Of a DNA stretch of 64,000 bases, positions 3,001-57,838 are shown piece after piece. The notes beneath the pieces were generated by a model that did not search any database, was not told where the DNA came from, and worked only from the letters and a program-made list of their open reading frames with translations. This stretch comes from Patescibacteria group bacterium. Lineage in GTDB: Bacteria > Patescibacteriota > Patescibacteriia > Buchananbacterales > UBA6539. The position numbers and the translations under genes were made by a program. The stretch spans positions 16,338-80,337 of the forward strand of contig JBAZMQ010000004.1 of the NCBI GenBank assembly GCA_041649675.1. The letters are read 5' to 3'. Position 1 is the first letter of the stretch; each line of letters begins with the position of its first letter.

Positions 3001-6000
3001 TGATTTGCAGCGCGATATAGATGATAATAAATTGCCCGATGATTGGAATATTTGTCAGTCGGCGGCCAATCCGAATGCTTTTTGCGCTAACTATCAAAGT
3101 GTATCGCTGAGACATGATAAACTTTATACTTTAACTGTTATTGGTACTGATGCTGCCAATGATAGTGATCGGCTTTGGTATAATACCGGCCAGCCTTTTA
3201 TTGAAATCAGTAATTGTCCGGCCATTACCTCTTTTGATCATTCAATGGTCAGAGTTTGTACCGATGCCGGTGGTTCGTTGGTTTTAAATGCTGGTAATTT
3301 GCCTACAGTCTGTACAGCCAACAGTGATTGTCCTGGTGGTCAAATTTGTAATGGCAATGTTTTAGTATTGCCTTGGGCTAAAGATAGTCGTAGTGCTGAC
3401 AATACGCCGAATTTACCTAATAGCAGGCAGTACTCCGGTCGTTTCTTTGTGCCGGAAAGGGATGAAATTTGTAGATTAGTTGTTCATACCAATTTATCAT
3501 TCCGGATTGATCAAACTGGAGCTTCTAATTACATCAATAAATATGTTAAAGAAATCAGGTTAGTCCCCACCGATGTTAGCTATGTTCTTAGTGACTCTGT
3601 TGATAAATTAAGTTGTAATGCGATTGTTAATCATGAGAATGGTTGTGTTTTGTTCAATGATCGCAGCAGTGTTAATTATAAGATTGGTGAAGATGATACA
3701 AGTTATTTAAATTTTGATGCCAATGTCAGTGGCCCAACCATTAACAACGGTATTGCCGTTAATCAATGTGCCGGCGTTTGCAATTCTAATGTTGTTTTGA
3801 AAGTTACACCTGACCGGATTTGTAATTCTTGGCTTTATTGTAGCAGCTATGCCACTTTTCCCGGCAGCGGCAGCCAGGGTGAGCGCAATGATTGTACCAG
3901 CATTGGTTTGTGCGATTCTTTGGATGACAACGGTAATTGCAGCGACTTTATTGCGCCCAAGAAAGAAGGTGCTCGCCAGGACTATTACCGTTCCCTTGAA
4001 GAGATCAGGGATTTGAGCGGCTACGTTAAGGCTGGATTAGATTTCACTCAACAATTGGCTAATGCCAAAATTCAAACTGATTTGCCAAAAATTATCCAAG
4101 GTGATTATCCTTATTCGGAAATGGTTCAAAAAGGCGGTATTGTATTCTCGCCTGGCACTAATTTTGAAAATGAGTTATCAAATTCGCTTAAGCCGTTTGG
4201 TTGGAATTTGAGATACCCGTTATTAACTGAACCGCCGGCTCAAAGTTTTTCAACTGCCGTTTGGCTCTTGACTTACTCTAAATTAATTGACAGTCCAATT
4301 GCCGCTCAAAAAGAAGGATTGGATTCTTCCGCTCCTGAAGGCTCAAAGTTTCTTAAACTTAGCGGTCCATACGTTGTTAATTCGGAAGAAATTGATGTGT
4401 TTGGTAGTTCCGAATACATTATGTCAGCCTTTATGAATACCAAAAATTTGCTTAAAGGTAGTGCCATAGTGGCCGTTGAACAATTTAATGATGAAGGAGC
4501 ATCATTAGGAATTAACCATGTATTAAACTTAGGGCGTTCAAGCGATTGGGTTTTTAGAGAAAACAGCTTTAGGACTAACTCGGCGACAACAAGAATAAAA
4601 ATTATTTTAAGTAATTGGGGACCAACTAGCCGAAGTGGTCATAATCCTTGGACTGGTGATACGGCCGACGTTATTCATGATGTTGTCGGTAGTTCTTATT
4701 TTGACGACATTAAAATAAAGCCGAATTTGCAGGTTGGCAATAACGCTTATGTTCCGCCAAGTTGCCGGGTTTATCCAGCGGCTGACTCTTTGAGTTGTGA
4801 TTATGTCACTTCGGACAATTTGCGTTTACGTGGCTGGCTTGGTTATTGCATTGAAACTGATCCGGCTAATCCGCAACAATGTTTGAATTGGTGGCCAATA
4901 GAATTAATTAATGGCGGCTTTGTTGATGAGCAGCCATTCATTACCCAAACGCCGCTTTACTATTGTTTAAAGGCTAAAGAAAATTTTTACGGTTTGCAAG
5001 CTTGTTTATTTAGAACAGATAGCACCCGTTGCGCTTCGGTCGGTGCCGGTGCTACGGGCGCCCCATCGCCAAGAATTTTTAATTGGGCAGTACCAACTGC
5101 TTGGCAGCTGGAAAGATGGCAAATTGTTAAATTAAGAATGATTACCTCGACTGCTGGTTGTCAAACCGAAGCTTGCGGCGGCGCCTTTACTCAGGTAAAC
5201 TTTTTACCTGATCCTAAAGGTAAAGACTCTACGCTTTTTATTAATGGTTCTAAGGGTTGGCAAGCCCATCTTAAATTTGGTACTAATAATAGGTTAGAAA
5301 GTATTGATTTCAATATCGGCGGATCAAATTGTATTTGTCCAGATGCTGATATTACAATTGAAGCCAGGAAGGAATGGTGTCAGATTCTGGTTCAAACCGT
5401 TACGCCTTTTGGTCAAAGCCGACCTTGGTGGAGCCGGATTTCCAATAACAGCGGTTCGACTTATACTGTCCCAGGCCTAAACTATCTTTATAATTTTGAT
5501 ATCGCGCCATACGGTGCGGTGGTACCGTCTTTGCCGGTAGAAAATCCAGCCGCCTGGAATTCAAGTTCTTATGCCGGGGTTGGACCACTGTGGGTGGCTT
5601 CGCCTGACCGGATTAATTTTAATACTCCGTTTCAAGCCAGGGCGGGAATTCCTTATTCTTGCGATCAAACTTCTGCCAAATATGGCAGCTTCAATTGTGC
5701 TTATCCGCCTCAGAGCACTGGTATTGCCAATAAAATTAACAATAAATCCGACCAGCTAGTGACCGCCGAGGTTAAAGGTATGGATAATTTAAAGCGGCTT
5801 TTTGTCCGTAATTATGGCAGTTGGCAGTATCAAGGTGACGGAGTTTGCAAAGATGTGGTAACCAATGAAATTGTAACTCAGGACGGTCGGGAAATCAGCT
5901 GTGCTTGTCCGGAAAGTTCCTGCAATGCCGAAACCAATAATTTTAAAATTTGCGGTTATGTTGACGAAGATGCTTTAGACAGAGGTTTTCCGGGTGTTTG

Positions 6001-54769: not shown

Positions 54770-56833
<2,064 letters not shown>

Positions 56834-56850
56834 AAAATTTTAGTCTAACG

Positions 56851-57386
56851 AAAAGCACCCCCTTATGATAGTACTTTTTTCTGTCATTGTCTGTCTGTGT
56901 TTGAGGCAGGGCCAAGCATGCTAAAAGGGGGTGCAAAAATTGGTGTTTGGGTTGCCGAGGAAGGGTTTGAACCTTCAGGGCTTCAAAATTAATTGTGCAG
57001 CTACCCGGCAACACTGACGGAAAGAGTTTGTCGTTGCCCGGCGGCAACGATGCTTTTCGGTTCAGTCTTTTTAGGGTGAAGTAAAGAAAGATTGAAATGT
57101 TGGAAATCATTCGAACCGTACAGATAGTTCGCCCGAAAAGCATGGTTTTAGCAACCCGGGGAGAGTTGCTGGGAAAAGTTTACCATATCAGTTTGCAAAC
57201 CTCTTGGACAAGTGGTCACAAAACTAAGAAACAATGGTAAGCTTTACCAGCTGAAATTTCTGCTGCCTGATATTTCAGGCAAGGTAGGGGCCTGTCGGTT
57301 GCGACGGGGTAATCGCTTTGGGGCAGGGGGGATCCTCCTAACAGACAATTTCAGTGTTTTCTCTCGCAGGAGAAAATTTTTTTAGC
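56851..57386 (+). ncRNA. Candidate structured non-coding RNA locus (identity unresolved: tmRNA-like, RNase P-like or tRNA-like elements) ending in an intrinsic terminator
   Basis: - 690-bp ORF-free region.
- 8-bp long-range complement GCACCCCC (56855-56862) / GGGGGTGC (56927-56934).
- 'GGGGCCTGTCGGTTGCGACGGGG' (57287-57309) resembles the tmRNA 5' consensus GGGG-N6-GGAUUCGAC(A/G)GGG.
- On the minus strand, a canonical T-arm GAAGG-TTCAAAC-CCTTC (plus 56960-56976) with a 7-bp acceptor-like pairing TGCCGGG/CTCGGCA.
- Several further hairpins. Confidence 0.3.
57357..57383 (+). terminator. Intrinsic terminator (stem TTTTCTCT/GGAGAAAA, loop CGCA, T7) closing the candidate ncRNA and preceding gatC
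   Basis: Hairpin followed directly by 'ttttttt'. Confidence 0.65.
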
Positions 57387-57547
57387 TACTGATAACTTAC
57401 AGTATAATCTTTTTCTTTGACTTGTCAAACCAAAATAATCCTTATATACTGTAATAGTAAATTCTAAGCCCAAAATATCAAATTTAGAATTTGAGATTTG
57501 TTTGGAAATTGGAATTTTGAATTTTGTATTTATCTTTAACTACAACT

Positions 57548-57838
57548 ATGGCTTTATCAAAAAAAGACGTTGAACATATTGCTTTGTTAGCCCGGCTTGG
57601 GTTAACTGAGGCTGAAAAGGAGAAATTTGCCAGTCAACTTTCTTCAATTTTAGATTACTTTGAGCAGCTTAAGGAAGTTAATACAAACGGGGTTGAGCCA
57701 ACCGCCCAAGTGACTGGTTTGGAAAACGTATTAAGAGATGATGTTGTTGAAAGTTATGATGCTGAAACAATGAAAAAATTGGTTGATTTAGCACCGGAGC
57801 ATGAAGATAATTTGGTCAAGACTAAATCGGTTTTTTAA
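57548..57838 (+). CDS. gatC: Glu/Asp-tRNA(Gln/Asn) amidotransferase subunit C
   Basis: 'LSKKDVEHIALLARLGLTEAEKEKFASQL...FEQL' is a typical GatC. ATG 57548 is preferred over the TTG at 57524. Confidence 0.85.
   Translation: MALSKKDVEHIALLARLGLTEAEKEKFASQLSSILDYFEQLKEVNTNGVEPTAQVTGLENVLRDDVVESYDAETMKKLVDLAPEHEDNLVKTKSVF

Follow-up and report, generated by a model that had tools for sequence, protein, structure and literature searches.

The stretch of DNA analysed here, which we call the window, comprises 64,000 nucleotides (nt) of a Patescibacteria group bacterium (GenBank assembly GCA_041649675.1, contig JBAZMQ010000004.1, positions 16,338 to 80,337 of the forward strand), and its positions are counted from its first letter. 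On the plus strand, the gene ligA (54803-56833) is followed by gatC, whose ATG lies at 57548, and the two genes are separated by a gap of 714 nt (56834-57547), which is the subject of the present analysis. On the evidence of sequence comparison, this gap is a real, unannotated and lineage-restricted structured RNA locus, and it is in all probability not a transfer-messenger RNA (tmRNA), an RNase P RNA or a riboswitch.

The gap between ligA and gatC

A preliminary description, made from the letters of the window, had drawn attention to the gap as a highly structured region free of open reading frames (ORFs). This was confirmed, except that the gap is 714 nt long and not 690. The description had also called gaps of this size rare, and indeed no other part of the 64-kb window leaves 250 nt or more uncovered by ORFs of at least 90 amino acids (aa). 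One ORF enters the gap: it encodes 115 aa on the minus strand (56796-57143), overlaps the end of ligA, and has neither a Pfam match nor any conservation against the spacers of relatives. No Pfam match was obtained for any of the three longest ORFs of the gap, the other two being of 47 and 57 aa and both on the plus strand, and six-frame tblastn against the relatives' spacers found no conservation at the protein level beyond the conserved nucleotide blocks.

The G+C content is 0.45-0.475 across 56900-57400, compared to 0.386 in the whole window and 0.275 in the adjacent promoter DNA. The predicted folds reached -193.4 kcal/mol on the plus strand (z -4.23) and -159.3 kcal/mol on the minus strand (z -4.33), both measured against dinucleotide shuffles. 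Every sequence feature listed in the preliminary description was found at its coordinates. The view of the gap as a structured non-coding RNA locus, and not an empty spacer, is supported.

Homologous copies and signs of selection

The ligA protein of the window is identical to one from a Patescibacteria metagenome-assembled genome, and its nearest named relatives are Candidatus Buchananbacteria. The order ligA then gatC is widespread in Patescibacteria, with a spacer that often measures a few bases to about 150 nt. Spacers measure 0.7-1.8 kb in the clade nearest to the window (70-80% identity in ligA), and their contents differ among the genomes. The ligA-derived loci of relatives are denoted here by L-numbers (L001, L081, L161 and so on), and our nhmmer and blastn searches with the spacer covered about 175 related loci.

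We found four homologous copies of the unit in three genomes, namely the window copy, L161a, L161b and L081. The closest relative, L161 (Candidatus Buchananbacteria; ligA 80% and gatC 84% identical), holds two of them: L161b is located directly upstream of gatC, and L161a between ligA and an inserted minus-strand nucleotidyl-transferase gene. The sequence searches detected homology in L161 alone, in addition to a shared promoter block. The L081 copy (ligA 76%) was found with R1, a covariance model of the tRNA-like part described below (22 bits, E ~0.002), and among the approximately 175 other ligA-derived loci R1 retrieved nothing comparable besides it. A second model, combining the H2 domain with the tRNA-like part, was dropped because MAFFT misaligned the helix strands. 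When the whole unit was compared by blastn with a phage genome collection, no similar sequence was obtained.

Between the window and L161, identity at the four-fold degenerate sites of ligA is as low as 45% (91/201), and neutral sites must therefore be near saturation. In the spacers, blocks that are 80-91% identical nevertheless persist, and aligned globally the spacers score 14, compared to 3.2 +/- 1.8 for shuffles. The consensus fold of the window and L161b lies 10.6 standard deviations (plus strand) and 12.0 standard deviations (minus strand) below those of column-shuffled alignments. Conserved blocks against such a saturated background suggest that the spacer unit is under selection.

The tRNA-like element

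The best-supported module of the gap is an element resembling part of a transfer RNA (tRNA). It spans 56951-57012 on the minus strand, scores 79.4 bits with R1, and is composed of an acceptor-like helix and a T arm. The helix has 9 bp (57012-57004 with 56959-56951, GUUGCCGGG/CUCGGCAAC) and is continuous with the T arm GAAGG-UUCAAAC-CCUUC (56976-56960, minus strand). The preliminary description had pointed out this T arm together with a helix UGCCGGG/CUCGGCA, and both turned out to be conserved in the four copies with compensatory changes. The middle of the element, 27 nt long, forms at best a 3-bp D-like hairpin and has no anticodon arm.

When the four copies were aligned under the guidance of the model, standard pairs occupied 55 of 55 cells; in slid registers, pairing fell to 40-58%. 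Five of the nine acceptor pairs have changed on both sides across the copies. The covariation score of 0.464 was reached by none of 500 shuffles (0.21 +/- 0.06). The T loops read UUCAAAC, UUCUAAU or UCCAAAU, and a U1-A72 pair is invariant in all four copies; the element has no G3.U70 pair. L161a and L081 fold as four-armed cloverleaves without linker nucleotides, in which the arm at the anticodon position ends with a tetraloop in L161a and with ACAGUCA in L081; this arm has been lost in the window and L161b. None of the four copies has an anticodon loop, which in tRNAs measures 7 nt with U33 and a purine at position 37, and none has a GG in the D-like loop.

The window copy produced no match to the tRNA family RF00005 at E<=10 and no ARAGORN call. 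The L161b copy, searched with permissive filters, reached 30.7 bits with RF00005 on the minus strand, where the gathering score is 29. When viral contigs were scanned for exact matches to the T-arm and acceptor string, the 29 loci returned were ordinary phage tRNA genes (Ile, Gln, Met). A tRNA(CUG) in the spacer of another relative, L163, begins with UGCCGGGUGGC, and the counterpart in the window is UGCCGGGUAGC. Because of this likeness, it is plausible that the element descends from a tRNA of the cluster that relatives carry at this place.

Modules of the proposed minus-strand RNA

Read on the minus strand, the modules follow one another in the same order in all four copies: a promoter, an A-run with a hairpin, a domain closed by a helix that we call Pb, a variable middle, a domain closed by a helix that we call H2, an optional hairpin, the tRNA-like element, and a large stem with a U-run. 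The promoter-like site of the window (57401-57428, minus strand) reads TTGACA-16-TATACT, agrees with the consensus at 11 of 12 positions, and has its expected start near 57394. Its -35 box overlaps, back to back, that of the gatC promoter (57422-57450, plus strand, TTGTCA-17-TATACT). Equivalent minus-strand sites are found in L161b (4713 to 4686, 11/12), L161a (2838 to 2810, 10/12) and L081 (5706 to 5677, 10/12). The gatC promoter block is the only sequence block common to the spacers of all relatives, and at its core is the near-palindrome CTTTGACTTGTCAAAC (window 57415-57432), which contains a -35 box on each strand, TTGTCA on the plus strand and TTGACA on the minus strand; this suggests a shared bidirectional promoter.

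The 5' hairpin (57357-57383, minus strand) consists of UUUUCUC-CUGCGA-GAGAAAA after an A-run, and a hairpin is found at the same place in L161b and L161a. Viewed on the plus strand, the same positions read TTTTCTC-TCGCAG-GAGAAAA followed by T7, a weak look-alike of an intrinsic terminator. The preliminary description had taken this for a canonical terminator. The 7-bp stem, the 6-nt loop and the T7 are all present, but only two of the pairs are G-C, and our terminator scan did not call the hairpin. L161a and L161b have hairpins there as well, and on the plus strand these too precede U-runs.

The Pb-closed domain occupies 57251-57354 on the minus strand. Its closing helix pairs 57354-57347 with 57258-57251 (CUGAAAUU/AAUUUCAG) and extends past a one-base bulge by pairing 57345-57341 with 57263-57259 (UCUGU/GCAGA). 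In L161b the helix is that of the window with an A-to-G change, in L161a it reads GGUUUCUC/GAGAAACU and in L081 GAUUUCUU/AAGAAAUC. Nowhere is conservation between the window and L161b stronger than in the two strands of Pb (91% over 23 nt), and the G.U pairs of the helix exist on the minus strand only. A hairpin CTGAAAT-N14-ATTTCAG had been proposed at 57251-57278. The sequence is there, but the local hairpin is confined to the window, and the comparison favours Pb, in which CUGAAAUU pairs through 57347-57354. Within this domain, the plus strand of 57287-57334 contains four G-runs (GGGG, GGGG, GGGG, GGGGGG) in 48 nt, an insertion absent from L161b that may possibly form a long-loop G-quadruplex or may be a plain G-rich insertion.

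The variable middle (57142-57250, minus strand) was delimited from the L161b alignment and the minus-strand minimum free energy fold. It includes a hairpin at 57150-57170 (AGCAAC-loop-GUUGCU, minus-strand loop UCUCCCCGG), and a conserved single-stranded CUAAAACC stands immediately before H2. Its length is 17 nt in L081 and 86-110 nt in the other copies. The H2-closed domain follows (57052-57141, minus strand), with GCUUUUCGG (57141-57133) paired to CCGAAAAGC (57060-57052) in a helix extensible to 11 bp. H2 is fully Watson-Crick in all four copies, with a C-G to U-A change in L161b, GCUUUUGGC/GCCAAAAGC in L161a and GCACCGCUU/AAGCGGUGC in L081, and it was also recovered by RNAalifold. The short G+C-rich hairpin CGUUGCC-GCCG-GGCAACG (57030-57051, minus strand) is present in the window and L161a and absent from L161b.

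Beyond the tRNA-like element lies the terminal stem-loop (56847-56934, minus strand), with a 10-bp stem (56934-56925 with 56864-56855) around 60 nt and UUUUCGUU after it. It is located 22 nt from the stop codon of ligA and resembles a terminator-like end of the RNA. An 8-bp complement, GCACCCCC/GGGGGTGC, had been listed here, and it is real, but its full extent is the 10 bp 56855-56864 with 56925-56934. The equivalents are a stem with U7 in L161b, a stem with GUUUUUCUUUUUG in L081, and a canonical minus-strand terminator (2147 to 2115) in L161a.

Which strand is the functional one

The functional RNA is probably on the minus strand rather than the plus strand. Upstream of all four copies there are minus-strand promoter-like sites with 10-11 of 12 consensus positions, and no comparable plus-strand promoter was found upstream of L161a or L161b. 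The ligA gene of L161 has a terminator of its own directly after the stop codon. A stem with a U-run is located at the minus-strand 3' end in 4/4 copies. In the conserved helices, all six of the six non-Watson-Crick pairs are G.U on the minus strand and A.C on the plus strand, and the T-loop motif UUCNAAY reads on the minus strand only. RNAalifold did return a helix that exists on the plus strand only, GGUUUUAGC/GCUGAAAU, with G.U pairs in the window and L161b; it is in competition with the longer Pb, and L081 lacks the 5' block of this helix.

Comparison with known RNA families

Rfam 15 was scanned at the gathering score, and with permissive filters at E<=10 over all families, on both strands of 56700-57650. 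At the gathering score the window contained two tRNAs, both outside the gap. At E<=10, neither strand of 56700-57650 matched tmRNA, permuted tmRNA, RNase P, T-box, SRP, 6S, ROOL or GOLLD. ARAGORN called no tmRNA and no tRNA in the gap and two tRNAs elsewhere in the window. Only tRNAs came up when Rfam was run on the window, L001, L081, L161, L163 and nine additional loci, and ARAGORN found no tmRNA in any of the relevant relative loci.

A tmRNA in one or two pieces had been among the candidates, and the plus-strand string GGGGCCTGTCGGTTGCGACGGGG (57287-57309) had been read as the pattern of a tmRNA 5' end. The string is at that position, but it fits the pattern with two mismatches, which is near chance: 0.11 such occurrences are expected per window, and at least one was present in 10 of 100 shuffles. 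Furthermore, it falls within the window-specific G-rich insertion, and its GGGG...CGAC is absent from the orthologue L161b. With no match by ARAGORN or Rfam, the candidate is not supported. The preliminary description had itself conceded that the tmRNA test failed in part, and we agree, as the plus strand downstream of 57287 has no T arm, no CCA end and no complementary 3' strand. The alpha, beta and cyano models of permuted tmRNA gave no match at E<=10, and the order of parts in the element on the minus strand (5' strand, T arm, 3' strand) is the standard and not the permuted one. A plus-strand frame ALPAEISAA-stop is found at 57241-57270. The corresponding frame of L161b (L161 4480-4581) reads PPAEISAAF-stop and thus does not end in AA. 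The two nucleotide differences between the PAEISAA frames are both synonymous, and neither genome has a start codon for the frame. We treat the shared frame as a coincidence of the conserved Pb helix strand.

RNase P RNA is not supported as a candidate: neither RF00010 nor RF00011 matched the window, L001, L081, L161 or L163 at E<=10, whichever strand was searched. The earlier suggestion of a resemblance to the conserved regions (CR) of RNase P RNA did not survive the comparison either: in L161b neither of the look-alikes, GGAAAGAGU (from 57019) and ACAGACAAUUUCAG, is conserved, and the unit occurs twice in one relative. Authentic CR-I (GGAAAGUCC) and CR-V (ACAGAA..GGCUUA) form the helix P4 around the whole catalytic and specificity core, whereas AAUUUCAG finds its partner, CUGAAAUU, at a distance of only about 90 nt. 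Degenerate CR-I/CR-V patterns occurred at chance frequency and were uninformative. The idea of a riboswitch-like leader for gatCA met a different obstacle, namely that the conserved gatC promoter (57422-57450) lies downstream of the element, which places the element outside the gatC transcript; there was no Rfam match for a leader. For annotation, a false lead is thereby removed, as neither the tmRNA nor the RNase P RNA of the organism is likely to be encoded here.

Contents of the spacer in other relatives

In relatives, the minus strand of the spacer carries tRNA genes that adjoin the gatC promoter: Gly-UCC in L001, Gly-GCC with a Gln-like CUG tRNA in L163, Thr in L165, Asn in L174, Gly-GCC in L175, and three tRNAs upstream of gatC in L171 (2747-3104). 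A Pro tRNA is also among these minus-strand spacer tRNAs. Two of the three tRNAs in L171 are tRNA-Gly (GCC, ACC) within a 152-nt tandem duplication, the units being 86% identical. In L084 the ligA-gatC spacer is absent altogether. An ORF of 149 aa inserted in the spacer of L082 (5121-5570, minus strand) resembles, by eye only, an IS200/IS605-type Y1 transposase, which fits the spacer as an insertion hot spot.

Some of the relatives' tRNAs are unusual. Beside the gatC promoter of L167 (5872-5970, minus strand), a tRNA with an encoded CCA end scores 46.5 bits with RF00005 and spans 99 nt, about 25 of which form an insertion around the anticodon loop that is far too short for a group I intron; ARAGORN did not call this 99-nt tRNA. 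In L168, a tRNA-looking sequence GGGCCGUAGCUCAGUUGAUUA...GAGC...T arm (~5535-5650, minus strand; spacer 507-622) has a hairpin-forming insertion of about 40 nt inside the D loop, and it was called neither by ARAGORN nor by Rfam at the gathering score. Downstream of ligA in L205 (5029-5300), there are several short G+C-rich palindromes (e.g. CCCCGGATTAAAATCCGGGG and CCAGGGTTTTAACCCTGG) like those of repetitive extragenic palindromic (REP) sequences. Between gatC and gatA, L001 (7159-7515) and L206 (3330-3692) possess a gene for a protein of 118-120 aa, for which the window has no equivalent; the L206 copy matches the Pfam families 23S_rRNA_IVP and bAvd. The spacers of L169, L171-L175, L205 and L206 had other contents (tRNAs, a small ORF, REP-like hairpins) and no further members of the family.

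A proposed minus-strand RNA derived from a tRNA transcription unit

We suggest, with about an even chance of being right, that the gap is an independent gene for a minus-strand non-coding RNA of about 540 nt, from ~57394 to ~56850, which includes a tRNA-derived cloverleaf without an anticodon. Transcription would start at the promoter standing back to back with that of gatC, and would end at the large stem and U-run beside the stop codon of ligA. The RNA would fold into the 5' hairpin, two domains closed by the long-range helices Pb and H2, and a 3'-proximal tRNA-derived cloverleaf, in which the perfect acceptor-like helix and T arm have presumably been retained and the anticodon lost. As to its origin, the RNA would come from a divergent tRNA transcription unit. 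A lineage-restricted non-coding RNA that arose from such a unit is most likely, because the same promoter appears to drive minus-strand tRNA genes in related Buchananbacteria.

A minihelix of acceptor and T arm is the minimal substrate of the tRNA-processing enzymes, namely RNase P and either RNase Z or the CCA-adding enzyme, and from this property we infer that the module would be a handle for processing and stabilisation. Such a handle might release a small tRNA-like RNA, or it might set the 3' end of the upstream structured part of about 430 nt. Genomes of the candidate phyla radiation (CPR) are about 1 Mb in size and densely packed with genes. A promoter and a terminator of its own, the compensatory upkeep of its helices, and two diverged copies in one relative fit functional retention of this RNA. 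A bolder version, which we regard as a long shot, would make it a member of a new class of large non-coding RNAs, specific to the CPR and co-opted from a tRNA operon, either with an anticodon-less minihelix like that of tRNA-Gln that serves as a decoy or sensor for GatCAB or processing enzymes, or with a C-rich regulatory RNA of about 430 nt released by RNase P. U1-A72 is an identity feature read by bacterial GatCAB on tRNA-Gln and tRNA-Asn, and a decoy or sensor for the amidotransferase or the tRNA-processing enzymes is conceivable because this pair is invariant and the RNA would be transcribed divergently from gatCAB.

Several observations weigh against an independent minus-strand gene of this kind. 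The plus strand is the G-rich one (123 G vs 85 C in the core), as is usual for the sense strand of structured RNAs, and in all four copies its fold is the more stable one. At the right-hand end, each copy has a hairpin with a U-run that could end plus-strand transcription. In the window and L161b, the minus-strand 'terminators' are non-canonical, with loops of 45-60 nt. The count of G.U pairs is biased, because the limits of the helices were chosen while the minus strand was being viewed, and the covariation statistics are thin, because there are only four copies in three genomes. The homology of Pb and H2 in L161a and L081 is based on position and not on alignment. Finally, block B reads PAEISAA on the plus strand in both the window and L161b, with the synonymous differences mentioned above.

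Alternative explanations

The gap might be a relic of a decaying tRNA cluster within a spacer prone to recombination, made of tRNA pseudogenes and structured spacers without a present function. We consider this unlikely, yet it is the alternative to be taken most seriously. A relic would still fold, because tRNA arms are inverted repeats. The locus is fluid, with differing tRNAs among the relatives (Gly-UCC, Gly-GCC, Thr, Asn, Pro, Gln-like), an IS200-like transposase in one of them, no spacer in L084 and tandem tRNA-Gly in L171; the element of the window fails the tRNA model, and sequence similarity has gone at 70-76% ligA identity. Near the promoter there is also a 10-nt identity to the 3' end of the tRNA-Gly of L001, whose score was reached by 8 of 300 shuffles; beyond this weak identity, the promoter-proximal 100 nt showed no likeness to other tRNAs. 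Decay, however, does not readily explain why blocks of 80-91% identity and compensated helices persist when neutral sites are near saturation (45%), or why the acceptor and T helices are perfect in four copies while the anticodon region decays, a contrast that points to selection on the minihelix. Moreover, a promoter and a terminator accompany each of the two diverged paralogues in the small L161 genome, and outside the element the gap is unlike a tRNA by both R1 and RF00005. Less probable again, in our judgement, is a functional RNA on the plus strand, either a long structured 3' untranslated region belonging to ligA or an RNA in its own right that ends at the hairpin and T7 of 57357-57383. 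The lower folding energy and G-richness of that strand would agree with it, as would the right-hand hairpin and U-run in the window, L161a and L161b, the RNAalifold helix GGUUUUAGC/GCUGAAAU, and the ligA of the window, which has no obvious terminator of its own. It is opposed by the competition of that helix with the longer Pb and its missing 5' block in L081, by the lack of an upstream plus-strand promoter in L161a and L161b, and by the termination of L161 ligA right after its stop codon. On the plus strand, furthermore, the internal G.U pairs of the acceptor helix and Pb turn into A.C mismatches, and the T-loop motif and the RF00005 match exist on the minus strand only.

That the gap encodes a highly diverged RNase P RNA or tmRNA missed by the standard models seems to us very improbable. 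Divergence of this kind does occur, as 10 of 35 circular CPR genomes revealed their RNase P RNA only when the bit-score threshold of RF00010 was lowered to 5 (Lui et al. 2021, PMC8172020). The plus strand offers the look-alikes GGAAAG, AGGGUGAAG and ACAGAC, the tmRNA-like 5' string and the AEISAA-stop frame. Still, no model matched at E<=10 in the window, L001, L081, L161 or L163, and ARAGORN found none. The look-alikes are not kept in L161b, where the frame ends in AAF-stop, and the tmRNA-like string sits in the window-specific insertion; no more than about 90 nt separate the candidate P4-like strands. The acceptor-like helix of the window closes locally over 44 nt and does not join the ends of the RNA as in a tmRNA, it has no G3.U70, and two copies in L161 would be unexpected for a single-copy essential RNA. 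The least probable reading is a plus-strand cis-regulatory leader of gatCAB (riboswitch, T-box or attenuator), to which we give hardly any weight. The position upstream of gatC would suit it, alternative pairings (blocks A, B and C) are available beside the terminator-like hairpin, and gatCAB is under T-box control in Clostridium. Yet the sole universally conserved block, the gatC promoter, lies 3' of that hairpin, no T-box or riboswitch model matched, the alternative pairing does not overlap the terminator stem, and L161a has no downstream gene on the plus strand except a convergent one.

Relation to known tRNA-like RNAs

The minus-strand RNA that we favour would share features with several known systems. 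The element resembles a tRNA (RF00005) in that its acceptor-like helix runs on into a T stem of 5 bp with a 7-nt UUCNAAY loop, that the ends of the helix look like those of real tRNAs, and that it is located where relatives hold tRNA genes. Unlike a tRNA, its helix has 9 bp and not 7, it has no anticodon loop and no GG in the D loop to dock on the T loop, and two of its copies form a four-way junction free of linkers. With the tRNA-like domain of tmRNA it shares the arrangement of an acceptor and T-arm mimic without an anticodon inside a larger structured RNA. The acceptor helix of tmRNA, however, joins the ends or pieces of the RNA, whereas that of the element closes locally over 44-52 nt, and the element has no G3.U70 pair and probably no conserved tag frame.

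Modules of the MALAT1/mascRNA type and bacterial structures cleaved by RNase P are known from eukaryotes, or from single sites in bacterial mRNAs. The present case would be similar in that the minihelix is near the 3' end of a long structured transcript (predicted), upstream of a terminator, and that tRNA-processing cleavage could set the ends of the RNA. ROOL and GOLLD are large ornate bacterial RNAs found beside tRNA genes. The proposed RNA resembles them in its size of about 0.5 kb, multiple domains, fast-evolving sequence and location beside or among tRNA genes, and differs in that it has no Rfam match at E<=10, another architecture and no phage context. In bacteria, Mukai et al. (PMC5389517) described tRNA-Other of B. 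cereus and allo-tRNAs with 8/4 or 9/3 acceptor branches. These are also tRNA-derived with a non-canonical acceptor and T geometry, and are sometimes found in polycistrons with odd tRNAs, but they keep the anticodon and a 12-bp branch, whereas the element has a stack of 13-14 bp and no anticodon.

The locus extends the known theme of RNAs that are derived from tRNAs and resemble them. The RNA biology of the CPR bacteria, with diverged RNase P and odd tRNAs, is poorly charted. If our explanation is true, the ligA-gatC gap would be a clear case of a tRNA transcription unit that has turned into another RNA and kept only the half composed of the acceptor and T arm.

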